Shown here in pieces: positions 31,695-55,521 of a stretch of DNA of 64,000 bases. The notes under the pieces are model-generated. The model was given only the letters and a program-made list of their open reading frames with translations. It was not told the origin of the DNA and did not search any database. The translations under genes were made by a program, and so were the position numbers. Each line of letters starts with the position of its first letter. Position 1 is the first letter of the stretch. The DNA is from Candidatus Yanofskybacteria bacterium (GTDB lineage Bacteria; Patescibacteriota; Minisyncoccia; 2-02-FULL-40-12; IGHO2-12-FULL-4), in NCBI GenBank assembly GCA_016185525.1, contig JACPNK010000005.1, positions 28,473 to 92,472 on the forward strand, read 5' to 3'.

Positions 31695-31715
31695 GCTTGT
31701 ATCTTATTTAGCGCA

Positions 31716-31861
31716 GCAGACACAGCCTCTGAAGTCGCTGAGGAGGCAGTTTGCATGGTTGAGATTAAGTATAGTTATTCTTAACTTAATCTCAAAACTG
31801 CCGACGTCGCGAGCGAACGGAGTCGCTGGCGTAGTGAGCGTGCTGAAGAGGCTGTGTCTGC
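31716..31861. repeat. 146 bp MITE-like element, copy 1 (15 bp terminal inverted repeats GCAGACACAGCCTCT)
   Basis: About 89% identical to the reverse complement of 45448-45593. Termini are gcagacacagcctct...agaggctgtgtctgc. Confidence 0.6.
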
Positions 31862-31876
31862 GAAGCTAAAAAGTTC

Positions 31877-45434: not shown

Positions 45435-45447
45435 GTCGTTCAGCTTC

Positions 45448-45593
45448 GCAGACACAGCCTCTTCAGTACGCTCACTTCGCCAGCGTCTCCGTTCGCTCGC
45501 GACGTCGGCAAATTTGAAATGAAGTTAAGAAAAATTATACTTCATTTCAACCATGCAATTTGCCTCCTCAGCGACTTCAGAGGCTGTGTCTGC
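45448..45593. repeat. 146 bp MITE-like element, copy 2 (inverted relative to copy 1)
   Basis: gcagacacagcctct...agaggctgtgtctgc; about 89% identical to the reverse complement of 31716-31861. Confidence 0.6.
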
Positions 45594-45650
45594 TATGCTT
45601 TATTGGTCGTCGGCTCTCAAAGCATTTAACCACCCATTTTCGAACCTTTT

Positions 45651-45692
45651 CCGAGGACTGTCCTTAAATCTGAAAAAAGGACAGTCCTCGGA
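45651..45692. repeat. family A palindrome as a split hairpin (15 bp stem, 12 nt loop)
   Basis: ccgaggactgtcctt-aaatctgaaaaa-aggacagtcctcgg. Confidence 0.55.
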
Positions 45693-45743
45693 TCTGACCT
45701 TAACATGTGTATAAAACCTTGAAAAATGAGGGTTTTTAAACCA

Positions 45744-45773
45744 TTGACAATGGTGGTTAAAGTTTGGTATAAT
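45744..45773 (+). promoter_or_regulatory. near-consensus sigma70-type promoter (TTGACA, 18 nt spacer, TATAAT)
   Basis: ttgacaatggtggttaaagtttggtataat, followed by GGAG and the ATG of a 60 aa ORF. Confidence 0.5.
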
Positions 45774-45802
45774 TAGAGTATAGAATTTCCCGGAGCTTAA
45801 AG

Positions 45803-45985
45803 ATGACCACAGAAGAAACAGAACAAAAGCGTTTTGAAGAAATTTTAGAAAGTATTCGTCGCAGAATGGCGGCGGATGCCTTAAGAGGAAATCCCGTAGG
45901 AAGAAAAACTTACGGTCATAGTCCAAAGATTGACAACGACTATGATTCTGGAGATCGAGCACATTATATCTTAGATCACGAGTAA
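45803..45985 (+). CDS. small hypothetical protein (60 aa) in a compact promoter-ORF-terminator unit
   Basis: MTTEETEQKRFEEILESIRRRMAADALRGNPVGRK...; it has an upstream consensus promoter and a downstream terminator. Confidence 0.4.
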   Translation: MTTEETEQKRFEEILESIRRRMAADALRGNPVGRKTYGHSPKIDNDYDSGDRAHYILDHE

Positions 45986-46013
45986 AATAACACGAGAACG
46001 GTTATTGCGTTGT

Positions 46014-46044
46014 ACCCCGAGAGTTAATTCTCGGGTCTTTTTTT
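46014..46044 (+). terminator. rho-independent terminator
   Basis: cccgagagttaattctcggg followed by tcttttttt. Confidence 0.55.
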
Positions 46045-46091
46045 ATGAAACTTCTGATGGACTTCTTTCAACCGGCTCTTCTCGTCAAGGT

Positions 46092-47048
46092 TCAACCTTG
46101 ACGTTTCTTGTGAAACTTTTTATGTATTTCTTTCAAACCGCTGTCGGTAACATGAGTATAAATTTGAGTTGTCGTTACTGAAGAGTGGCCGAGTATCGCT
46201 TGGACAGAGCGGATATCGGCGCCGTTTCTTAAAAGGTCGGTGGCCATACTATGGCGGAGCGAGTGCGGTGAAACTTTTTTACCGACAATTCCGGCGCGTG
46301 TTGCGTGCTTTTTTATTATCCTTTGTATGCTTCGGGGACTTAATCTTAGGTTTTCGTATTTGCCAAAAGCTTGGTCTTTGGGAATCCGAATAAAAAGTGC
46401 TGGGTCGGCGTCACTGCGTTTTTTTAAAAAGCTGCTGATTGATTTTTGGGCATCGTCAGATAAGAAGACCAACCTGATTTTTGAGCCCTTGCCTTTAACC
46501 GATATCTCTCCCCTGTTCAAATCCACCTTGTCTGTTTCCAAAGAGCAGAGCTCTGATACGCGCAAGCCGGTGCTGAACAAAGTTTCCAAGATAGCTTTAT
46601 CGCGCAAATCAGACAAGTTGTCGTCTTTAGGCGAAGCCAGAAGCCTTGCCAATTCGTTTGACTCCAGAAAATCTATATGCCTGTCTTCCTGCTTGCCCAG
46701 TTCTATTTTTTCCGGCGAGACGGATTTTATCTCTCTCTTGGATAAATATTTCAAAAAAGCCCGTATGGCGATTATGTGGTAGTTTTGAGTAACTTTTTTT
46801 AGAGACTCGCCGTGATTGTCAGTCAGCCGATTTAAATAGATCCGGAACTTTCTAATCAAATCTTCGGAAATCTGGCTAGCCGAACCGACTTTTGCAAAAT
46901 TCAAAAACCGGTTGAGATAATGGCCATAGTTTTCCACCGTCTTCGACGAGCGGTTTTTCTCAATCTCCAGATACTCCAGAAAATCGTTTTTTAATTGCTT
47001 AACATCTGCCACGCATATAATCATACCCCACAAACCCAAGTCGCACAA
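46092..47048 (-). CDS. tyrosine site-specific recombinase (XerC/XerD or integrase family)
   Basis: 318 aa; N-terminal core-binding domain; C-terminal HSLRHSMATDLL...GHSSVTTTQIYTHV (R-H-R-Y catalytic residues). Confidence 0.8.
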   Translation of the reverse strand: MCDLGLWGMIICVADVKQLKNDFLEYLEIEKNRSSKTVENYGHYLNRFLNFAKVGSASQISEDLIRKFRIYLNRLTDNHGESLKKVTQNYHIIAIRAFLKYLSKREIKSVSPEKIELGKQEDRHIDFLESNELARLLASPKDDNLSDLRDKAILETLFSTGLRVSELCSLETDKVDLNRGEISVKGKGSKIRLVFLSDDAQKSISSFLKKRSDADPALFIRIPKDQAFGKYENLRLSPRSIQRIIKKHATRAGIVGKKVSPHSLRHSMATDLLRNGADIRSVQAILGHSSVTTTQIYTHVTDSGLKEIHKKFHKKRQG

Positions 47049-47085
47049 TAACTTTCTGACACCGGGTGTCAGAAAGTTATTGTGT
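47044..47085. promoter_or_regulatory. 42 bp perfect palindrome at the recombinase start / rpsO upstream region
   Basis: cacaataactttctgacacc g ggtgtcagaaagttattgtg (20 bp arms). Confidence 0.35.
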
Positions 47086-47167
47086 TGTGGTATTGTGTAA
47101 AATCGAAACTTGCCTCAAAACCAAATCCGTGATATCTTTGTCAATATAGTCAAGTTGGTTTTCCGCA

Positions 47168-47434
47168 ATGATTAATCCTAAAGACAAAACAAAAATTATA
47201 AAAAAGCACTCAATTCACGAGACTGATACCGGTTCGGCGGCTGTTCAGGTGGCTTTGTTTAGCGAAGAAATTGAGAGGCTAACCAAGCATCTCAAGAAAC
47301 ACGTCAAAGACAACAGCTCCCGCGCCGGTCTTTTGAAAATGGTCTCCAAAAGACGCCGGCTTTTGGAATATCTCAAAAAAGAGTCGCCAAAAAAATACGC
47401 TAAAATTCTCAAAGAACTCGGACTCAAAAAATAA
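47168..47434 (+). CDS. rpsO: 30S ribosomal protein S15
   Basis: 88 aa; HETDTGSAAVQVALFSEEI...LLKMVSKRRRLLEYLKK. Confidence 0.9.
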   Translation: MINPKDKTKIIKKHSIHETDTGSAAVQVALFSEEIERLTKHLKKHVKDNSSRAGLLKMVSKRRRLLEYLKKESPKKYAKILKELGLKK

Positions 47435-47964
47435 TGCAGAAAGGCCGCAAACCAAAAATCTCTGAAATTACTTCTGAACACCAAAGGGTGGGTGTTTTTG
47501 TTGACGCCCAGAACATGTACCATTCGGCAAAAAATCTTTATCATGCTAAGGCTAACTTCAAAAAAATCTTGGAAGCGGCGGTCGGCGACCGTCAGTTAAT
47601 CAGGGCTTTTGTTTATGTCATCAAGACTGAAACCGGCGAAGAAAAAGCTTTTTTGGAGGCGCTGGAAAAAAGCGGTTACGAAATCAAGGTCAAAGACCTC
47701 CAAATCTTTCCCGGAGGCATGAAAAAAGCCGACTGGGACGTCGGCATGGCGATTGACGCTATCATTTTGGCGGACAAAATTGATGTGGCGGTCTTAGTTA
47801 CCGGCGACGGCGACTTTATTCCTCTGGTTGAATATCTCCGCGTCAACCGTGGCCTCAAAGTTGAGGTCGTCTCTTTTGGCCGCAGCACTTCGGCCAAGCT
47901 CAAAGAAACGGTGGATGTTTTCACCGACTTAGGCGAGGACCCTAAAAAGTTTCTAATGTATTAA
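47434..47964 (+). CDS. NYN-domain (LabA/PIN-like) protein
   Basis: 176 aa; VGVFVDAQNMYH...VLVTGDGDFIPLVEYLR. The start overlaps the rpsO stop. Confidence 0.7.
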   Translation: MQKGRKPKISEITSEHQRVGVFVDAQNMYHSAKNLYHAKANFKKILEAAVGDRQLIRAFVYVIKTETGEEKAFLEALEKSGYEIKVKDLQIFPGGMKKADWDVGMAIDAIILADKIDVAVLVTGDGDFIPLVEYLRVNRGLKVEVVSFGRSTSAKLKETVDVFTDLGEDPKKFLMY

Positions 47965-48117
47965 CCAAAACTGGAAAGATTTAATTAGGCATTTAAGTCC
48001 CCTTTTGGGGATTTTTAAACACCCAAAACTTGTAGCCGAGGGATGTAACATTCGGGAGGGTTGGAGTATTATACTTAATGATATCCAAAAACATCTGCCG
48101 ACCGGCAGACTGCGAAT

Positions 48118-48639
48118 ATGGAGCAAAACGAAGAAAAAATGCTTGTAAAAAGAGCCCGGAGCGGAGACCGCCAAGCGCTGAGTCTGCTTTGGGATGCTCT
48201 AACGCCTAAGCTTTTTGGTTATCTCGTCAATACCACCAAAAACAAACCGCTGGCCGAAGACTTGCTTCAAACAACCTGGCTTAAGGCAATTGATAATCTT
48301 TCCAAATTTAAGCAGCAGGACGCGGGTTTTAGCGCTTGGCTTTTTGCCATAGCCCGTAACGAATACCGTCAACACTGGCGAAAGCGTAAAAACGAAGTGT
48401 CTTTTGAACCAGCCGAACACGACCAGCCGGATAGCAGCCAAGGGTCTCCGGAAGCAAAGATTTTTGTAGAACAAGCTCTTGCCTATCTTTCTGATGACGA
48501 CAGGGAGCTTATCAGGCTCCGATATATTGTCGATTTACCGATTAAAGATATTGCCTTAATCCTCAAACTTAATTTTGTAACAGTGCGAGTGCGCATACAT
48601 CGGGCCTTAGCCAAAATGCGCGCCGCTATTACTTCTTAA
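48118..48639 (+). CDS. ECF-subfamily RNA polymerase sigma factor
   Basis: 173 aa; region 2 (LLQTTWLKAIDNL...FSAWLFAIARNEY) and region 4 HTH. Confidence 0.8.
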   Translation: MEQNEEKMLVKRARSGDRQALSLLWDALTPKLFGYLVNTTKNKPLAEDLLQTTWLKAIDNLSKFKQQDAGFSAWLFAIARNEYRQHWRKRKNEVSFEPAEHDQPDSSQGSPEAKIFVEQALAYLSDDDRELIRLRYIVDLPIKDIALILKLNFVTVRVRIHRALAKMRAAITS

Positions 48640-48641
48640 AT

Positions 48642-49793
48642 ATGGCTAATTTTTTTAGGACAATTGAAGAGGTTCTTGCTGACTGGGGACGCAGGCAACG
48701 TCAACTTCCCTCTCGCAACGAACTGTTAAAAAGCGAAATCTTAAACAAGCTACAGGCTACAGAGCCGATGCTGCCGAAAATTTTACCGCAACACTGGCAC
48801 ACTCCTTGGCTTAGTTTTGCTTTTACCAGCTTGGCACTGATTTCCTTGTTTGTCGGAAGTCTTTTGCCTCTTGGAACTTCTACTACGGTCAAAACTCTAA
48901 ACAACAAGGACGTAGAACTTTCAAGTCCGTTTTCAAATTCGTTGAGCATCCGAAAGGGCGATTCAATTTTCTTCACTCCGCCACAAGGTTATGAAATTCC
49001 AATAACTGATAACCGTGAGTTTACAAGAACCGACTACAGCGCCAATATCCGTACTCGCCGCGTAGATGAACTTGTTGAAAATATTGGCGATACCGTCCGT
49101 TTTCTTGGCGGGCGGGTGGATAGTTCCAACAGCTCTAAGCAATATGGCCATGTCAGTTTTGTGGTGCCGGCAGACAAATTTGAATCTTTCAGGCGTTCGG
49201 TCAAAAGATTGGCAGGCGGCAGGTTTTTGATAGAAAATATCTACACCGAGAATCTTCTTCCGCAAAAGCAATCCATTGAACAACAGCAAAAAAATGCGGG
49301 GGAAACACTTACCAAACTTAGAAGCGAAAAAAACAGTCTTATCTCAAACCACAAAAAAGTCGTTGCTCAGATCCAGTCAAAGATAAACGAAGTTGACAAG
49401 AGGATCACCGCGGTTAGAATTAAGCTTGACGTCACCAACGATCCGTCGCAAAGGGAGATTCTTAAAGCTGAAGAAAGAAGGCTTTTGGACGAAAAGAATA
49501 CCCTTGAAGCTGAACTTGCTAACGAAAACTCTAATTACTCAAGCAAGCTTTATTCGCTTGATTTGCAAATCCGAGAAAATGAAGCAATTTTAGACAGTGC
49601 TTTTAAAGAAGACCAAAAACTTGTTGATACTGTTGCCACCGTCCGCGGGACTGTTTCTCTTGGTTGGATAAGCGTTTGGGAAATTATCCGGCTTTATGTT
49701 CCCGTAAACTTTGGCTTTGTGGTATTCGGCATTGCCGCAATTGCCGCTTATCTTATTCACCGCCGACGTTCATATTTATTTTTGCCGGACTAA
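48642..49793 (+). CDS. DUF4349-like membrane protein, putative anti-sigma partner
   Basis: 383 aa; N-terminal cytoplasmic segment, TM, periplasmic domain with coiled coil, C-terminal TM. Co-transcribed position after the ECF sigma gene. Confidence 0.45.
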   Translation: MANFFRTIEEVLADWGRRQRQLPSRNELLKSEILNKLQATEPMLPKILPQHWHTPWLSFAFTSLALISLFVGSLLPLGTSTTVKTLNNKDVELSSPFSNSLSIRKGDSIFFTPPQGYEIPITDNREFTRTDYSANIRTRRVDELVENIGDTVRFLGGRVDSSNSSKQYGHVSFVVPADKFESFRRSVKRLAGGRFLIENIYTENLLPQKQSIEQQQKNAGETLTKLRSEKNSLISNHKKVVAQIQSKINEVDKRITAVRIKLDVTNDPSQREILKAEERRLLDEKNTLEAELANENSNYSSKLYSLDLQIRENEAILDSAFKEDQKLVDTVATVRGTVSLGWISVWEIIRLYVPVNFGFVVFGIAAIAAYLIHRRRSYLFLPD

Positions 49794-49845
49794 AGAGGGC
49801 TCTCCGCCCTCTTTAAATTTTAGAAGTAATGTGGTAAAATTTTTT

Positions 49846-50079
49846 CAAATGCCCACCCCCGCTATTACCAAAAAATTAACCCAAAAAGGTGACTTTGTAA
49901 TCATTCCTCGTAAAGGATACGAGGAGTTTTTAGCTTGGCGAGGAACAAACAAGAGAATAGAGACTTACACTCCGACACCTGCCGAGAAAAGGGCTATTGC
50001 CAAAGCAAAACGAAACTTTACCAAAGGAAATTATGTAACTTGGGAAGAACTGAAACATGAGTTGGCAAGTAATCGTTGA
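49846..50079 (+). CDS. type II antitoxin (copy 1), paralog of 52212-52424
   Basis: MPTPAITKKLTQKGDFVIIPRKGYEEFLAWRG...; the first 25 aa are identical to copy 2. The track ORF is 5-prime extended. Confidence 0.5.
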   Translation, partial: QMPTPAITKKLTQKGDFVIIPRKGYEEFLAWRGTNKRIETYTPTPAEKRAIAKAKRNFTKGNYVTWEELKHELASNR

Positions 50080-50082
50080 TAA

Positions 50083-50219
50083 ATCAGCCAGAAAACAACT
50101 CCAGCGTTTACCAAAAAGAGGTTTCCAGTATTTACAGAATTTTTTACACAATTTATTTTAAAGAAAGGATAATTTACATTTTTGAAATCAAGCGTCGAAC
50201 CACGACTACTTATTCGTAA
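50083..50219 (+). pseudogene. RelE/ParE toxin remnant (internally deleted)
   Basis: It retains 5-prime and 3-prime DNA similarity to relE at 52428-52679 (...gaaatcaagcgtcgaaccacgactacttattcgtaa) but is about 115 nt shorter. Confidence 0.5.
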
Positions 50220-51041
50220 ATGAAAAACCAAAAAGGATTCGCTCTTGTTCCTGTAATCTTGGTGCTTATCATCGCTGGCATGGGCATCTGGTTTTTGCTT
50301 ACCAAAAGCCTCGCTCCGGATCAGCTCCGACAATATGTTAAAGACGGCAAAATAGACCGAGATTTTGCATTTTGGTTAGGAAAAAATGAAAGCATGGACG
50401 CACTTGTTATTTTCAAGAGTAATGATGAAAAGAAAAGATTTTTAAACACTTTTTCTAAAAATGACTACATCCTTTTGGAGGACTACGGTGGATTCGAAAC
50501 GGCCTATATAACAATCCCAAACATGGATGCCGCCGGTAGAATTTTATCAGATTCAGGAGTAGTAAAGTTTTCACCATACGGATGGGCTTTTTCGCAATTT
50601 GACGTCAAGGCTAGAGCAAAAACAAAAGCGTATCGTGATGATAAATACGGTTACGAAGTTAAAACCTCCAACTTTTACGCTCCTATCAAGAAACTATCGT
50701 CGACAGCTTTAAGAATAGGAGATGAGGCTATATTCCAGCAAATTTCAGTATTTGATAACCAAACGATTGGGGGCAGGATAAAGACAGCAGACATTCAAGA
50801 GATTTTAAAAACTGTTCGTCCGGGGTTAAGCTTAAGTAGATCAATTAAGAAATCTACTGTGGAGTATTATCTGGGAGGTAAAAAAGGTAAAGCGGTTATT
50901 TTTACCTTGGCACCGGAAGACAAGTACACTTATATTCTTGTGGAAAAAGATAACAAATTATACGAATTTTTCACTCCCGGTGATCTAAAAAATGGCGGGT
51001 CAGATGCAGAAACCTACTCCACCTTTAAATTTATTAAGTAA
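50220..51041 (+). CDS. pilin-like secreted protein, paralog P1 (MKNQKGF leader, C-terminal TFKFIK)
   Basis: 273 aa; prepilin-like N-terminus MKNQKGFALVPVILVLIIAG without Glu5; ends STFKFIK. Confidence 0.5.
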   Translation: MKNQKGFALVPVILVLIIAGMGIWFLLTKSLAPDQLRQYVKDGKIDRDFAFWLGKNESMDALVIFKSNDEKKRFLNTFSKNDYILLEDYGGFETAYITIPNMDAAGRILSDSGVVKFSPYGWAFSQFDVKARAKTKAYRDDKYGYEVKTSNFYAPIKKLSSTALRIGDEAIFQQISVFDNQTIGGRIKTADIQEILKTVRPGLSLSRSIKKSTVEYYLGGKKGKAVIFTLAPEDKYTYILVEKDNKLYEFFTPGDLKNGGSDAETYSTFKFIK

Positions 51042-51316
51042 TGTGGTATAGTGAACCCATGCCAAAAGTCAATAAAAAAATCTACTCTTACTCGGTATTT
51101 TATGAATCGGATCCGGACGGCGGTTATATTGTAACCGCACCAACCCTACCCGGTTGTTATAGCCAAGGCGATACACTAGAAGAAGCCGAAAAAAATATCA
51201 GAGAAGCGATCGAGCTTTACATAGAAAGTTTGGTTGCCCACCGTGAACCTATTCCGAAGGAAGTAAAATCTTTTCAGGGCACTGTGGTAATTCCTGTTTC
51301 ACCCCCTGCTCGATAG
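51041..51316 (+). CDS. hicB: HicB-family antitoxin
   Basis: YSVFYESDPDGGYIVTAPTLPGCYSQGDTLEEAEKNIREAIELYIE. Confidence 0.75.
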   Translation: MWYSEPMPKVNKKIYSYSVFYESDPDGGYIVTAPTLPGCYSQGDTLEEAEKNIREAIELYIESLVAHREPIPKEVKSFQGTVVIPVSPPAR

Positions 51317-51317
51317 C

Positions 51318-51548
51318 ATGGTTAAGATTCCTGCTTTAACTGCCAAAAAAGTCATCAAAGTTCTCAAAAGAATAGGATTTTTAGAAGATCGTCAAAAAGG
51401 TAGCCATCTAATTTTGTTTAACTCAAAAACCAACACGAGAACAGTTGTGCCAGTTCACGCTGGAAAAACACTGAAAAAGCCTCTTGTACGAGCAATTATT
51501 AATGATACTAAATTAACCGTCAAAGAATTTGTAGAGTTACTAAAATGA
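51318..51548 (+). CDS. hicA: HicA-family mRNA interferase toxin
   Basis: 76 aa; KVLKRIGFLEDRQKGSHLIL...VVPVHAGKTLKKPLVRAIIN. Confidence 0.75.
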   Translation: MVKIPALTAKKVIKVLKRIGFLEDRQKGSHLILFNSKTNTRTVVPVHAGKTLKKPLVRAIINDTKLTVKEFVELLK

Positions 51549-52192
51549 AAAACCAAAAAGGATTTTCTAAAATAGCGGTGATTATTATTGCTGCAATTGT
51601 GATCGCAGTTGCCGGCTGGCGGTATTTATGGAGACCATACACGAATATCTACCCAGTTACTCCCACTCCGACAGTTAGTTCAACTACTGACCCCACCGCT
51701 GGCTCGCCCCGTGACGAAATTTTACGGGGCTGGCAAACTTACCGCAATGAGCAGTATGGGTTTGAGTTCCAAACTCCCGCCAACTGGATTATTGAAAATG
51801 AAAGTCGAGACGTCGGAAACGGTGTGGCGTTTATTACTGATTTTAAATCCCCGGACTTCAAACAGGCTGGGGATATGATGAATGAAGTGGATGTTTTGAG
51901 TGGCTATTTGCTCAATATTCATTTACAATATCCTTCAAATATTAAAACTTTTAGCGAACTGACAGAATTTTTGAAGCTCGGTCGTGGCGGCCACATTCAG
52001 TTGAGTGAGAAATTGATTTTGGTAGATGGTGAAAAGACCATCTTACATGACTTAGGAGATTATCGGCAAGGTAGCTTGAAGGATGTGCATTTTCTTCACG
52101 GGGATAAATGGTTCACTATTACCTTTTCTTACGCGAATTACGAAGATGATCAATTCAACCAAATCCTCTCCACCTTTAAATTTATTAAGTAA
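51545..52192 (+). CDS. pilin-like secreted protein, paralog P2
   Basis: 215 aa; MKNQKGFSKIAVIIIAAIVIAVAG...; central WQTYRNEQYGFEFQTPANW shared with P3; ends STFKFIK. Confidence 0.5.
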   Translation: MKNQKGFSKIAVIIIAAIVIAVAGWRYLWRPYTNIYPVTPTPTVSSTTDPTAGSPRDEILRGWQTYRNEQYGFEFQTPANWIIENESRDVGNGVAFITDFKSPDFKQAGDMMNEVDVLSGYLLNIHLQYPSNIKTFSELTEFLKLGRGGHIQLSEKLILVDGEKTILHDLGDYRQGSLKDVHFLHGDKWFTITFSYANYEDDQFNQILSTFKFIK

Positions 52193-52211
52193 TATGGTAA
52201 AATTTTTTCAA

Positions 52212-52424
52212 ATGCCCACCCCCGCTATTACCAAAAAATTAACCCAAAAAGGTGACTTTGTAATCATTCCTCGTAAAGAATACGAGGAGTTTTTGAAATT
52301 TAACTCTAGGCCGGTATATAAACCGACAAAAACTGAGTCGCGTATGATCAAACGAGCCAGAGAGGATTTTAAAAAAGGCAACTACATAACTCTGGAGGAG
52401 CTAAAAAAGAAATTAGGGTTTTGA
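52212..52424 (+). CDS. type II antitoxin (copy 2), partner of relE
   Basis: MPTPAITKKLTQKGDFVIIPRKEYEEFLKF... Confidence 0.55.
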   Translation: MPTPAITKKLTQKGDFVIIPRKEYEEFLKFNSRPVYKPTKTESRMIKRAREDFKKGNYITLEELKKKLGF

Positions 52425-52427
52425 TTA

Positions 52428-52679
52428 ATGTGGAGCGTTGTTGTAAGAAAATCTGCCGAAAAACAGTTGGATAGACTATCCAAATCCGCTCAAGTCAAAA
52501 TAATTCTTGCTCTGGAGACTTTCAAAAGCAATCCATTTAGCGGCGATATCGCCAATCTCAAAGACAGTATCTGGCGCCGGCGTGTCGGCTCCTATCGCAT
52601 TACATTTGAACTGATCAAATTCAGACGGATAATTTATGTAATTGAAATCAAGCGTCGGACCACAACTACTTATTCGTAA
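52428..52679 (+). CDS. relE: RelE/ParE-family toxin
   Basis: 83 aa; KSAEKQLDRLSKSAQVKIILALETFKSNPF...RRRVGSYRITFEL...VIEIKRR. Confidence 0.75.
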   Translation: MWSVVVRKSAEKQLDRLSKSAQVKIILALETFKSNPFSGDIANLKDSIWRRRVGSYRITFELIKFRRIIYVIEIKRRTTTTYS

Positions 52680-52680
52680 A

Positions 52681-53280
52681 ATGAAACAACTCTTTCAACA
52701 ATTTCAGAATCAAAAAGGCTTTGCCATCATCCCTCTCATAGTTATCCTCGCTTTAGCCGGCATTGGGGTTTATTGGTTTACCTCCGGAAGAACAATTCCG
52801 GGTGTATCTTGGCTTATGCCAACCCCAGATCCGACTGCTGGGTGGCAGACATACAGAAATGAGCAGTATGGGTTTGAGGTGAAGTATCCGGAGGGGTGGC
52901 AAATAAATGAAAATAATAGTCCGCTAACTTCACAATGGGTTCAAGTATTTTTAAACTCTAATCAGTTACAATCACAGAAAGAACCCCAGGTTCTAGACGA
53001 TTTTGAGATCAAAGTAAGCAAAGAATACAAACCAGGGTGGGAAAATTATTTTTTTGACCACAGTTCTAACGGTGAAATCACAATAAATAATGTCTATTGG
53101 AAAACCTTTTTGTTGCCAACTGGTACCGGTGGAGACGCGGCGTCAGGACAGACTTTTTTACCAGTTTTCGGACTTCAGTCGGTTCATAATAACTCTCTTT
53201 TTTCAATAAAATTTTTTAATCAAACCAATTTAACATCTTTACAAAACCAAATCCTCGCCACCTTTAAATTTATTAAGTAA
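52681..53280 (+). CDS. pilin-like secreted protein, paralog P3
   Basis: MKQLFQQFQNQKGFAIIPLIVILALAG...; WQTYRNEQYGFEVKYPEGW; ends ATFKFIK. The track ORF starts at 52642; the likely start is 52681, just after the relE stop. Confidence 0.5.
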   Translation: MKQLFQQFQNQKGFAIIPLIVILALAGIGVYWFTSGRTIPGVSWLMPTPDPTAGWQTYRNEQYGFEVKYPEGWQINENNSPLTSQWVQVFLNSNQLQSQKEPQVLDDFEIKVSKEYKPGWENYFFDHSSNGEITINNVYWKTFLLPTGTGGDAASGQTFLPVFGLQSVHNNSLFSIKFFNQTNLTSLQNQILATFKFIK

Positions 53281-53424
53281 TGTGGTAGAGTGCTTTTATT
53301 AACTTTGACAAGTAAGTTTTGCGGGGAGGAACGGAAGTAATGGGGCTTTGGCCAAAGCGTTCAAAAAGTTGAGCTTTTTGGCCAGAATCAGTTACTCTCC
53401 TCTCGTTTACTTGTTACACAATTT

Positions 53425-55521
53425 GTGGATATAAAAACATATTCCGAAGAGTTTGCGGGCAAGAAGCTCTTTGTTGAAATTGGCCGTTTGGCCGGACAGG
53501 CCAACGGCTCTTGCCGTGTGCAGTACGGCGATTCTACGGTGCTGGTAACAGCCACGATGTCGGCTCATCCAAAAAGCGCCGACTACTTTCCTTTGTCGGT
53601 GGACTACGAAGAAAAGTATTACGCCGCCGGAAAGATCAAGGGCTCAAAATGGATCAAGCGCGAAACCCGTCCGTCGGAGGAAGCGATTCTCACCAGCCGG
53701 GTAATTGACCGCTCAATCAGGCCAAGGTTTGACCACAACATAAGAAACGAGGTACAGGTTGTGCCAACTGTCTTAACTTTTGACGGAGTCAACGACCCCG
53801 ACATAGTGGCGCTTTTTGGCGCTTCTTTGGCTTTGATGATATCTGACATTCCTTTTGCTGGCCCGGTGGCTGGCGTTCGGATTGGTAAAATCGCGGGCAA
53901 ATTAGTTATAAACCCAACTTATGCCGAACGCACCCAAAGCGACTTTGACATAATTGTCGCCGGCACGGCCAACAAAATAAATATGATTGAGGCCGGCGGT
54001 AAGATTATCCCGGAAAAAGACATGGCTGAAGCTATAAATCATGGCTTCAAAGAAATACAAAAATTAACCAAACTACAGCAGAAAATTGCGGATGATTTTA
54101 AGGTTGAGAAGAAAAAACTGGACATTTTCAGCCACGACGAGGCTTTGCACAAGCTAGTCAGCGATTTTGTTGCGCCAAGACTTGAAAAGGTGCTTTACAC
54201 GCCTCACAAACAAGAGTATGTGGAAGGCCTTCACAGAACACAGGACGAGCTTGCTGAATATATCAAGGAACAATTCAAAGAGCATCCGGAGTTAGATGGC
54301 AAGCTTAAAGAAGCAAACGTTATCTTTGAAGAAGAAATTGACCGGATCGTCCACAAAAATATTTTGGAGTCGGAAAAAAGACCGGATGGCAGAAAAGTTG
54401 ATGAACTCCGGGCAATTAACGCTGAAGTTGCCGTTCTCCCCCACTCTCACGGCACCGGCTTGTTTAACCGAGGCACGACTCAAGCGCTATCGTCACTTAC
54501 TCTAGCGGCACCGGGCATGGAGCAATGGATTGAAACCATGGAAATTGAACTGACTAAAAAACGCTTTATGCATCACTATGTTTTTCCGCCTTTTAGTGTC
54601 GGCGAGGTTGGCAGAATGGGTTTTGCCGGCCGAAGAGAAATTGGCCACGGCGCTTTGGCTGAAAGAGCTTTGGAGCCGATTATCCCTTCCAAAGAAGAAT
54701 TTCCTTATACAATCAGGGTTGTTTCTGAAATCCTATCTTCCAACGGCTCATCTTCTATGGCCTCGGTTTGCGGCGCCTCTTTGGCTTTGATGGACGGCGG
54801 TGTGCCGGTCAAAACGCCGGCGGCGGGAATTGCCATGGGTTTAATGTTTTCCGCCGAAGGCGATAAGTATAAAGTCCTAACCGATATTCAAGGTCCGGAG
54901 GACCACCATGGCGATATGGACTTAAAAGTTGCCGGCACTAGAGATGGCATTACGGCTATGCAGATGGATGTAAAAATTGAAGGCATCACGCCGGAAATAC
55001 TGGAAAAGGCGCTAGAACAAACCAAAAAAGCAAGGTTAGAAATACTGGATCATATGGCCAAGGCCATATCAGAGCCAAGAAAAGAACTCTCATCTTTTGC
55101 ACCTAGGGTTAAAATTATTAAAATAAATCCGGAAAAGATTCGCACCGTAATCGGTCCGCAGGGCAAAATGATAAACGAAATTATAGACAAAACCGGCGTG
55201 CAAATTGACATTGAAGACGACGGCTCGGTGTTCATAACTTCAGACAGCGCCGAAGGCATGAAAAAGGCAATCTTGTGGATTGAAGATATAACTTACGAAG
55301 CCAAACCGGGCGACGAGTTTGACGGCAAAGTTGTAAAAATTATGGATTTCGGGGCTTTTGTTGAGTTTAAACCCGGACAAGACGGCATGGTCCATGTTTC
55401 TGAAATTTCAAACGAGCATATCCGCCGGCCGTCAGATGTTCTAAAAATTGGACAAAGCGTGCATGTGCGTGTGAAAAACATCGACGAGTATGGTAGAATA
55501 AACTTATCCATGAAAAAATAA
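53425..55521 (+). CDS. pnp: polyribonucleotide nucleotidyltransferase (PNPase)
   Basis: 698 aa; two RNase PH domains, KH (GPQGKMINEII) and S1 (GQSVHVRVKNID). Apparent GTG start. Confidence 0.9.
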   Translation: MDIKTYSEEFAGKKLFVEIGRLAGQANGSCRVQYGDSTVLVTATMSAHPKSADYFPLSVDYEEKYYAAGKIKGSKWIKRETRPSEEAILTSRVIDRSIRPRFDHNIRNEVQVVPTVLTFDGVNDPDIVALFGASLALMISDIPFAGPVAGVRIGKIAGKLVINPTYAERTQSDFDIIVAGTANKINMIEAGGKIIPEKDMAEAINHGFKEIQKLTKLQQKIADDFKVEKKKLDIFSHDEALHKLVSDFVAPRLEKVLYTPHKQEYVEGLHRTQDELAEYIKEQFKEHPELDGKLKEANVIFEEEIDRIVHKNILESEKRPDGRKVDELRAINAEVAVLPHSHGTGLFNRGTTQALSSLTLAAPGMEQWIETMEIELTKKRFMHHYVFPPFSVGEVGRMGFAGRREIGHGALAERALEPIIPSKEEFPYTIRVVSEILSSNGSSSMASVCGASLALMDGGVPVKTPAAGIAMGLMFSAEGDKYKVLTDIQGPEDHHGDMDLKVAGTRDGITAMQMDVKIEGITPEILEKALEQTKKARLEILDHMAKAISEPRKELSSFAPRVKIIKINPEKIRTVIGPQGKMINEIIDKTGVQIDIEDDGSVFITSDSAEGMKKAILWIEDITYEAKPGDEFDGKVVKIMDFGAFVEFKPGQDGMVHVSEISNEHIRRPSDVLKIGQSVHVRVKNIDEYGRINLSMKK

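Follow-up and report, generated by a model that had tools for sequence, protein, structure and literature searches.

Genes and features at the rpsO-pnp locus

The region between the genes coding for ribosomal protein S15 (rpsO) and polynucleotide phosphorylase (PNPase; pnp) was analysed in a 64-kb window of a Candidatus Yanofskybacteria genome (candidate phyla radiation, CPR; Paceibacteria), the window being the whole stretch of DNA considered. From rpsO to pnp, this region contained a gene for a NYN-domain nuclease, an operon coding for an extracytoplasmic function (ECF) sigma factor and a DUF4349 membrane protein, an array of three cassettes with toxin-antitoxin (TA) and PsbP-like (PL) genes, and a structured pnp leader, with copies of a 40-50 nt direct repeat (S) at the unit boundaries (Table 1). 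A tyrosine recombinase gene was located upstream of rpsO on the opposite strand. All genes listed in an earlier note on this DNA were retrieved, with identical coordinates. That note regarded the whole of 47434-53424 as an accessory insertion of about 6 kb, splitting the rpsO-pnp pair. This extent was too large, as the NYN gene is ancestral (64 of 73 loci, see below) and the segment that varies runs, by comparison with relatives, from 47965 (directly after the NYN stop codon) to about 53250. What really varies is a small islet with genes for TA systems and PsbP-fold envelope proteins.

Table 1. Features of the rpsO-pnp region. Positions refer to the 64-kb window, except for the last row, which refers to locus L009.
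Feature	Position	Strand	Details
Xer-type tyrosine recombinase gene	46092-47048	-	Pfam Phage_integrase and Phage_int_SAM_1
rpsO (ribosomal protein S15)	47168-47434	+	Pfam Ribosomal_S15, 104.7 bits, E 2.9e-30
NYN-domain nuclease gene	47434-47964	+	Pfam NYN, 120.7 bits
Terminator-like hairpin 3' of NYN	47997-48012	+	GTCCCC-TTTT-GGGGAT followed by a T run; read from the sequence
ECF sigma factor gene	48118-48639	+	Sigma70_r2 and r4_2; TIGR02937, 86.7 bits (cut-off 42.9)
DUF4349 membrane protein gene	48642-49793	+	28.8 bits, just over the 27.7-bit cut-off
S0, DUF4349 terminator hairpin fused to the first S copy	49792-49848	+	Hairpin 49792-49814 (z = -4.05); core 49812-49836; -10 element TGGTAAAAT at 49832-49840
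Cassette 1	49849-51041	+	AT1, toxin pseudogene and PL1
AT1, orphan putative antitoxin gene	49849-50079	+	Similarity to AT3
RelE-like toxin pseudogene	~50063-50219	+	Internal deletion
PL1, PsbP-like protein gene (273 aa)	50220-51041	+	Family N-terminus MKNQKGF, C-terminus STFKFIK
S1	51006-51057	+	Core 51024-51048; -10 element TGGTATAGT at 51044-51052
Cassette 2	51059-52192	+	HicB, HicA and PL2
HicB antitoxin gene	ORF from 51041, likely start 51059, end 51316	+	Pfam HicB_lk_antitox, 53.4 bits
HicA toxin gene	51318-51548	+	Pfam HicA_toxin, 64.1 bits
PL2, PsbP-like protein gene (215 aa)	51545-52192	+	Start overlaps the HicA stop
S2	52157-52208	+	Core 52175-52199; -10 element TGGTAAAAT at 52195-52203
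Cassette 3	52212-53280	+	AT3, RelE/ParE-like toxin and PL3
AT3, small putative antitoxin gene	52212-52424	+	Second copy of the AT1-type gene
RelE/ParE-like toxin gene	52428-52679	+	PHROG 1213, E 6.9e-16
PL3, PsbP-like protein gene (199 aa)	Likely start 52681, end 53280	+	Paralogue of PL1 and PL2
S3, presumed pnp promoter	53245-53296	+	Core 53263-53287; -10 element TGGTAGAGT at 53283-53291
Structured pnp 5' leader, long irregular hairpin	53306-53416	+	Fold of -46.3 kcal/mol, z = -4.46
pnp (polynucleotide phosphorylase)	53425-55521	+	GTG start; Pfam RNase_PH (twice), KH and S1
NYN 3'-end region segments of L009	8398-8487, 9615-9682, 9731-9773		

Eighty genome loci around relatives of the window PNPase were fetched and the window genes were located in each of them; synteny counts refer to 73 loci, those having 1.5 kb or more of sequence upstream of pnp. 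As the order rpsO-NYN-pnp was found in 64 of these 73 loci, NYN is an ancestral member of this cluster, which occurred in Yanofsky-, Azam-, Nealson-, Portnoy- and Uhrbacteria. The presence of a nuclease gene between rpsO and pnp is the norm in Yanofskybacteria and many other Paceibacteria. The NYN start codon and the rpsO stop codon overlap by 1 nt, so that NYN is translationally coupled to rpsO, as was recognised earlier; the spacing of both genes had a median of 48 bp and exceeded 400 bp in 3% of the loci compared. The closest solved structure to the NYN protein was 2qip (VPA0982; E 6e-23). The rpsO-NYN-pnp cluster suggests a functional link between the NYN endonuclease, S15 and PNPase, and a literature search combining NYN with rpsO or pnp returned no paper linking them. 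This conserved cluster is a by-product of the analysis that is perhaps of more lasting use than the islet.

The tyrosine recombinase, starting at 47024 in the Logan gene calls (310 aa), scored 241.6 bits against the NCBIfam XerA profile (cut-off of 220). Its scores were far under the cut-offs of the integron integrase profiles TIGR02249 (133 bits, cut-off of 265) and PRK15417 (83.7 bits, cut-off of 435), so that it does not qualify as an integron-specific IntI-type integrase. In 47 related loci, the gene was present upstream of rpsO and on the strand opposite to it; these include 13 of the 16 Yanofskybacteria loci (within L001-L049; loci are designated by L and a number) in which NYN and pnp are at most 200 bp apart and no cassette gene was detected. 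Both NYN and the recombinase are therefore conserved residents, the latter being a housekeeping gene of the Xer type outside the variable islet. This corrects a tempting misreading of the locus, in which the recombinase and a repeat resembling a miniature inverted-repeat transposable element (MITE) were considered to be the signature of an island; both are present, but the recombinase is not an island integrase. The arrangement xer(-)/rpsO-NYN-pnp is a conserved neighbourhood of Yanofskybacteria and other Paceibacteria.

The cassette array and its bounding repeat

The array (49.8-53.3 kb; 3.45 kb) consists of three co-oriented cassettes, each with the order antitoxin, toxin and membrane-anchored PsbP-fold protein. 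In cassette 1, the toxin gene is a remnant of 32 N-terminal and 19 C-terminal codons, which are in different reading frames. Cassette 2 contains a HicAB pair that qualifies as a type II TA system, both domains scoring above the 27-bit cut-off and the genes being 2 nt apart. The toxin of cassette 3 scored 21.5 bits against Pfam ParE_toxin, under the cut-off of 23, and a PDB sequence search with this RelE-like protein gave nothing significant. No family match was found for AT1 and AT3 in NCBIfam, Pfam or PHROGs; both proteins were identical at 47 of 76 aligned positions. The antitoxin role of AT3 was assigned from its position and its recurrence in locus L009, whose NYN-pnp gap displays the same order of antitoxin, RelE-like toxin and PL genes. 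Cassettes 1 and 3 are mosaic, as 121 nt across S and the 5' end of the antitoxin gene are 96% identical and the sequences diverge thereafter. The TA pairs probably stabilise the array. The GC content was 38.9% for the array, 43.7% for the sigma module and 40.6% for the whole window, and composition was unremarkable.

PL1, PL2 and PL3 are three paralogous membrane-anchored proteins. Their homologues have PsbP-related annotations, and PF18933 is present in many of them; the Pfam score for this entry (PsbP_2) was 20.7 bits, under the cut-off of 27. An AlphaFold model of PL2 (215 aa; pLDDT, the predicted local distance difference test, of 74) contained a transmembrane helix at the N-terminus, followed by a disordered linker and a domain that matched PsbP structures with E values of 3e-6 to 1e-5. 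On the basis of these homologues and this model, the PL proteins have a PsbP fold. Hence, the earlier description as a duplicated TA/pilin-like array was appropriate for the TA genes and the three paralogues, but not for the nature of the latter proteins. Indeed, a type IV pilin-like identity was rejected, the KGF motif being present and residue +5 being P, A or other, never E; likewise, the PL2 model displayed a transmembrane helix, a linker and a PsbP fold instead of a pilin fold. The C-terminus (...QILSTFKFIK*) was nearly invariant across CPR lineages in an alignment of 30 family members. A role of the PL gene as third component of the TA systems was rejected too, because L002, L016, L018, L032 and L045 have it on its own or in front of the pair. 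Three distant PsbP-like homologues occurred in contexts without a link to TA genes or pnp, with varied housekeeping neighbours. In L032 (2320-3408), PsbP-like genes were fused into a two-domain open reading frame (ORF) with an internal ILSTFKF motif, and L045 (5500-9500) contained approximately three tandem PsbP-like copies in the slot between NYN and pnp.

Repeat S is present in four copies (49794-49845 as part of S0, and S1 to S3), each at a unit boundary. Direct repeats had been anticipated at 47.4, 49.8 and 53.3 kb; they were found at 49.8 and 53.26 kb, as well as at 51.0 and 52.2 kb, but none occurred at 47.4 kb. A 13-nt match between the region upstream of rpsO (47116-47139) and the left flank of S3 was dropped, as such a match is approximately expected by chance in 12 kb. 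The left half of S corresponds to the last ~10 codons of a PL gene, encoding ...QILSTFKFIK*. The right half is TAATGTGGTAnAnT and forms, with TTTAAA 17 nt upstream, an extended -10 promoter pattern (TTTAAA-N17-TGGTAnAnT). The shape TGGTAnAnT also precedes other genes of the window and represents the generic extended -10 element of the organism. Unrelated first genes, belonging to the AT family and to three HicB lineages, start 6-8 nt (window) or 6-10 nt (L002 and L004) after the -10 element; for instance, the likely HicB start (51059) lies 6 nt after that of S1 and the AT3 start (52212) 8 nt after that of S2. If S acts as the promoter predicted from its sequence, this spacing suggests leaderless or near-leaderless mRNAs.

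S has a restricted occurrence. At up to five mismatches, it was found nowhere else in the window and, among the other loci, only in the NYN-pnp interval of L001-L004; six mismatches added L125. A metagenome-wide scan with the S core returned 30 loci, of which only L102, L105 and L106 were related, carrying S in the NYN-pnp interval and resembling L003 and L004, so that S is confined to a narrow clade. The remaining 27 matches were isolated, on unrelated contigs, and apparently due to chance. As single strands, S1-S3 folded no better than shuffled sequences on either strand (z of +0.4 to +1.6, with one value of -1.1); only S0 folds, its hairpin being the terminator of the DUF4349 gene. No inverted repeat or inverted arms were found inside the 25-nt core of S or in its flanks, and all copies are direct, none alternating in orientation. 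Several copies of S without a PL gene body keep 7-18 nt of the end of this gene; they start about 7-18 nt upstream of the -35 element and right after the preceding stop codon, which fits promoter-preserving deletions.

Variation among relatives and within the source community

The closest relative of the window is L001 (PNPase with 98% amino acid identity; DNA with ~84% identity). Similarity between both ends at the NYN stop codon (47964) and returns at 53252, S3 and the pnp leader being nearly identical in L001 and L002. This leader forms the conserved right boundary of the variable region. The L001 slot contains an unrelated segment of 0.66 kb, with a 62-aa ORF and a gene for a DUF6036-like nucleotidyltransferase. 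Across the loci, the NYN-pnp spacer ranged from 5 bp to 4.5 kb, with a minimum of ~125 bp before the more distant relatives are reached. The slot contained genes for HicAB, RelE with a small antitoxin, AbiEii, MNT/HEPN or PIN proteins elsewhere, as well as genes for a GerMN protein, a GH10-SLH xylanase or one to three paralogues of the PsbP-like family (200-500 aa). Variable accessory content between rpsO and pnp was thus rightly supposed, since the NYN-pnp stretch of related genomes carries other TA and secreted-protein genes. A shared gene content in relatives, named earlier as the finding that would speak for an ancestral arrangement, was encountered for NYN, but the rest of the slot differs. 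An integration hotspot was not confirmed. Among Yanofskybacteria, gaps of more than 400 bp occurred in 47% of cases between NYN and pnp, 39% between xer and rpsO, 55% between pnp and the next gene, and 5% between rpsO and NYN. As the neighbouring gaps are about as variable, the slot is not an exceptional hotspot.

The array architecture of the window is shared by L002, L004 and L105. In L002, the layout is NYN-PL-S-HicBA-S-pnp; in L004, it is NYN-S-HicBA-PL-S-HicBA-pnp, the second HicBA pair being the orthologue of that of the window (82-85% amino acid identity) at another array position. An empty-site layout was found in L125, consisting of NYN, sigma, DUF4349, a terminator with one S, the leader and pnp; S0 of the window is orthologous to this single S. 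In L009, a unit of antitoxin, RelE and PsbP-like genes is followed by two diverged (~80%) copies of the NYN 3' end (Table 1), which represent a footprint of repeated recombination within the NYN end. Heterogeneity within the source community, as proposed earlier, was represented by Logan contig L119 (SRR12113383, same sample series). This contig is identical to 50818-52188 of the window and then diverges in the middle of S2, after TTTAAATTTATTAA; here, the second PsbP-like gene is followed by a convergent gene for a PIN (VapC-like) toxin in place of S2 and the third unit. This is an alternative junction inside the repeat, but a chimeric contig is possible.

The sigma/DUF4349 operon

The ECF sigma factor qualifies as a member of group 4. 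The DUF4349 gene starts 2 nt after the sigma gene and the pair is kept together in homologous loci. No anti-sigma domain was detected in the DUF4349 protein by Pfam and NCBIfam profile searches; it is a putative anti-sigma partner. Apparent terminators are present on both sides of the operon, with a weak promoter-like match upstream. The spacer between NYN and sigma, which is conserved in the window, L125 and L127, contains a terminator-like hairpin and a promoter-like box. This hairpin (47997-48012) is kept in L125 and L127 and was absent from the list of a consensus terminator scan.

The pair is located between NYN and pnp in L125 (83% and 72% amino acid identity for the sigma factor and the DUF4349 protein, respectively) and in L127 (83% and 79%), which contain the closest database homologues of the DUF4349 protein; near pnp, none of the 80 genome loci had it. 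L004 is at least as close to the window as L125 and L127 are, and the closer L001-L003 are without the pair. Given its occurrence at the same place in L125 and L127 and its lack in these closer loci, the pair is an older accessory operon with a patchy distribution. A homologous pair with 55% identity was found elsewhere in CPR genome L126 (2920-9140), where it adjoins TraC/TraG-like type IV secretion genes and is close to rnpA-dnaA. This hints at an ability of the pair to travel with conjugative DNA.

Origin of the variable islet

The locus is best explained as a layered flexible islet and not as one insertion, with an array that would have been changed by homologous recombination at S without a dedicated integrase; a probability of about 0.6 is given to this explanation. 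The ancestral layer would comprise NYN, coupled to rpsO, and the divergent Xer-type recombinase gene. An older accessory layer may be formed by the ECF sigma/DUF4349 operon, whose position is common to a subset of lineages, and the youngest layer by the three-cassette array, situated at promoter element S before the structured pnp leader. Each S would combine the end of a PL gene with the promoter that starts the next operon, the last S serving pnp. Growth and reshuffling of the array may involve unequal crossing-over, gene conversion and import of related DNA, for which the S copies, the conserved 5' and 3' ends of the PL genes, and the flanking NYN and pnp genes could act as anchors. Shrinkage would take place through deletions that retain S, since S would be needed to express the next antitoxin or pnp. 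Homologous recombination and deletion are favoured over an integrase because S lacks a hairpin and inverted arms; no evidence for integrase-type integration was found at the locus. Signs of homologous exchange or decay are the mosaic of cassettes 1 and 3, the toxin pseudogene, the shifted HicBA pair, the PsbP-like copies of L032 and L045, and the NYN ends of L009.

Several points weigh against this explanation. The same 40-50 nt element is joined to unrelated genes at a nearly equal distance from their ATG, which is more precise than simple homologous recombination predicts and would be compatible with a site-specific mechanism and subsequent selection as well. As in integrons, the strand opposite to the array carries a tyrosine recombinase gene, at 2.8 kb from the first S. 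The account leaves the origin of the first S duplication unexplained, and S3 was under the consensus threshold of the promoter scan, which detected S0-S2. Furthermore, contig L119 may be chimeric, owing to a shared 30-mer in the de Bruijn graph, and only ~10 independent S-carrying arrays were available for comparison.

Alternatively, S may be a site-specific recombination site, the cassettes being small non-autonomous mobile modules that are moved by the neighbouring single Xer-type recombinase on an integron- or dif-module-like platform. This would account for co-oriented cassettes bounded by a direct repeat that is more conserved than the surrounding coding DNA, their precise junctions to unrelated genes, the single-S empty site of L125, the L119 junction inside S, the tyrosine recombinase gene 2.8 kb upstream on the opposite strand, and a TA-rich content resembling that of chromosomal integrons and Acinetobacter dif modules (PMC13141974, PMC6449649). 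However, S1-S3 have neither a hairpin nor inverted arms and all copies are direct, while the left half of S is explained by an invariant protein C-terminus and the right half by a generic promoter. In addition, the recombinase occurs in 47 loci, including 13 of the 16 short-gap loci among L001-L049, and does not reach an integron integrase score; rpsO, NYN and the sigma operon lie between it and the array; and no other genomic context of S was found. As it fails every structural test applied, this explanation is considered unlikely. Its wider form, that the S copies are recombination sites of a previously undescribed CPR cassette platform, at which TA and surface-protein modules are captured and shuffled at a promoter-bearing site by the single Xer-type recombinase of the cell, is quite unlikely as well. 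If true, it would represent an Xer cassette platform that is functionally integron-like and uses neither IntI nor attC hairpins, with the xer gene kept beside the locus.

The other explanations concern the region as a whole. An ancestral gene order from rpsO to pnp, with nothing inserted and loss of genes in the relatives, is consistent with the ancestral NYN gene, with the sigma/DUF4349 pair at the same position in L125 and L127 at identities comparable to those of core genes, and with the PsbP-like genes in this gap in many Yanofskybacteria. It is nonetheless very unlikely, the gap contents being non-homologous (HicAB, RelE, AbiEii, MNT/HEPN, DUF6036, PIN, GH10-SLH and GerMN), the cassette order differing between the window, L002 and L004, the L009 cassette being flanked by duplicated NYN 3' ends, and the L119 junction differing within the same community; the present data already point to gains of non-homologous cassettes. 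Hardly any weight is given to a genomic island of the classical, integrase-borne type or a degraded prophage that the neighbouring recombinase would have integrated at rpsO or pnp, with the MITE-like repeat as part of its end. The recombinase and an element with terminal inverted repeats are indeed present at 45.4-47.0 kb and the content is accessory, but the recombinase, rpsO and NYN have the same order and orientation in short-gap relatives without a cassette, so that synteny largely refutes this scenario. Moreover, the region contains no phage or conjugation genes, no att-like repeat at 47.4 kb and no marked compositional shift, and another copy of the MITE-like element lies in an unrelated intergenic spacer at a distance of 14 kb. 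A triplication that arose by collapse or mis-joining of repeats in the metagenome-assembled genome is just as difficult to accept. Logan short-read contigs do break at the 121-nt repeat (49811-49931 and 52174-52294), and 24 nt (52225-52248) were spanned by no retrieved contig. Against an artefact, independent Logan contigs from several runs cover 45665-50129, 49832-52224 and 52249-54878 at 100% identity, copy-specific mismatches put each repeat copy in the correct place, and the same architecture is present in L002, L004 and L105.

The layered islet is real but fairly ordinary, with boundaries and a mechanism that differ from those of the earlier note, and its new content is low to moderate. 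It shows how a small amount of flexible gene space is retained between the essential operons of reduced, symbiotic CPR genomes, apparently with no dedicated mobile-element machinery.

Comparison with known systems

Flexible genomic islands are of replacement and additive types, and are exchanged by homologous recombination in their flanks. Sedentary chromosomal integrons, such as the Vibrio superintegron, contain repeated attC sites and TA cassettes. The present array resembles the latter in its small, co-oriented, repeat-bounded cassettes, its several TA pairs, and a recombinase gene upstream on the opposite strand. In contrast with integrons, the recombinase is of a conserved Xer type, S is without an attC hairpin, each cassette apparently has its own promoter instead of one Pc promoter, and rpsO, NYN and the sigma operon (2.8 kb) separate the recombinase gene from the array.

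The dif modules of Acinetobacter plasmids are short, often consist of TA pairs, and are bounded by pdif (XerC/XerD) sites (PMC13141974, PMC6449649). The units of the array are similarly short, repeat-bounded, often of the TA type and without a recombinase of their own, an Xer recombinase being available in the cell. However, dif modules are shuffled between replicons, whereas the array is chromosomal and occurs at a single locus. Similarly, pdif sites are 28 bp long, with two inverted binding arms and alternating orientation, whereas S has no inverted arms and all its copies are direct. S does not display the site form of Xer dif modules and integrative mobile elements exploiting Xer recombination (IMEX), i.e., 28-31 bp with inverted arms and a spacer of 6-8 bp, and the GC skew showed no terminus-like switch, as for an IMEX-type location, in the 64-kb window.

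As in the core defence hotspots of Pseudomonas aeruginosa (PMC10250203), the islet has conserved flanks, here NYN and pnp, and non-homologous content in the same slot. Compared with such hotspots and flexible islands, its content is also rich in TA, abortive-infection-type and surface-protein genes, and no integrase is present inside the slot. Unlike these hotspots, the islet is much smaller (0.1-5 kb), belongs to a reduced CPR host, reuses one 40-50 nt gene-end/promoter element at its junctions, and is no more variable than the neighbouring intergenic slots.

The rpsO-pnp operon of E. coli possesses a pnp leader hairpin that is cleaved by RNase III (PMC5029454). As in E. coli, rpsO is located upstream of pnp, which has a long leader hairpin and apparently its own promoter. 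In contrast, NYN is fixed between both genes and coupled to rpsO, the pnp leader is unrelated in sequence to that of E. coli, and the stretch from NYN to the leader accommodates accessory genes.

The pnp leader and other elements near the locus

The inner hairpin of the pnp leader was conserved in 27 Yanofskybacteria sequences, with compensatory changes in 13 of the 17 predicted pairs, and an Rfam search with the leader gave no match. By analogy with the RNase III hairpin of E. coli, the leader may serve as a processing site for autoregulation. This covarying hairpin, for which Rfam has no entry, is perhaps another by-product of more lasting use.

The MITE-like element upstream of the locus (45439-45594) is 156 nt long, with 26-nt terminal inverted repeats at 85%. 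A second copy, inverted and 91% identical, is located ~14 kb away (31715-31870); both copies are intergenic, and L002 contains a partial match. In 45744-45985, a promoter with a perfect match to the consensus (TTGACA-N18-TATAAT, TG being present upstream) precedes a 60-aa ORF (45803-45985), behind which a terminator is located (46016-46035). This promoter was conserved in both L001 and L002.

A perfect palindrome of 41 nt, with two 20-nt arms, is present between the xer start and rpsO (47044-47084). This palindrome overlaps a GTCGCACAA box, which is also found upstream of xer in several relatives, and a different palindrome occurs at the equivalent position of L004. For the palindrome of the window, a role as operator, mRNA hairpin or recombination site is conceivable.

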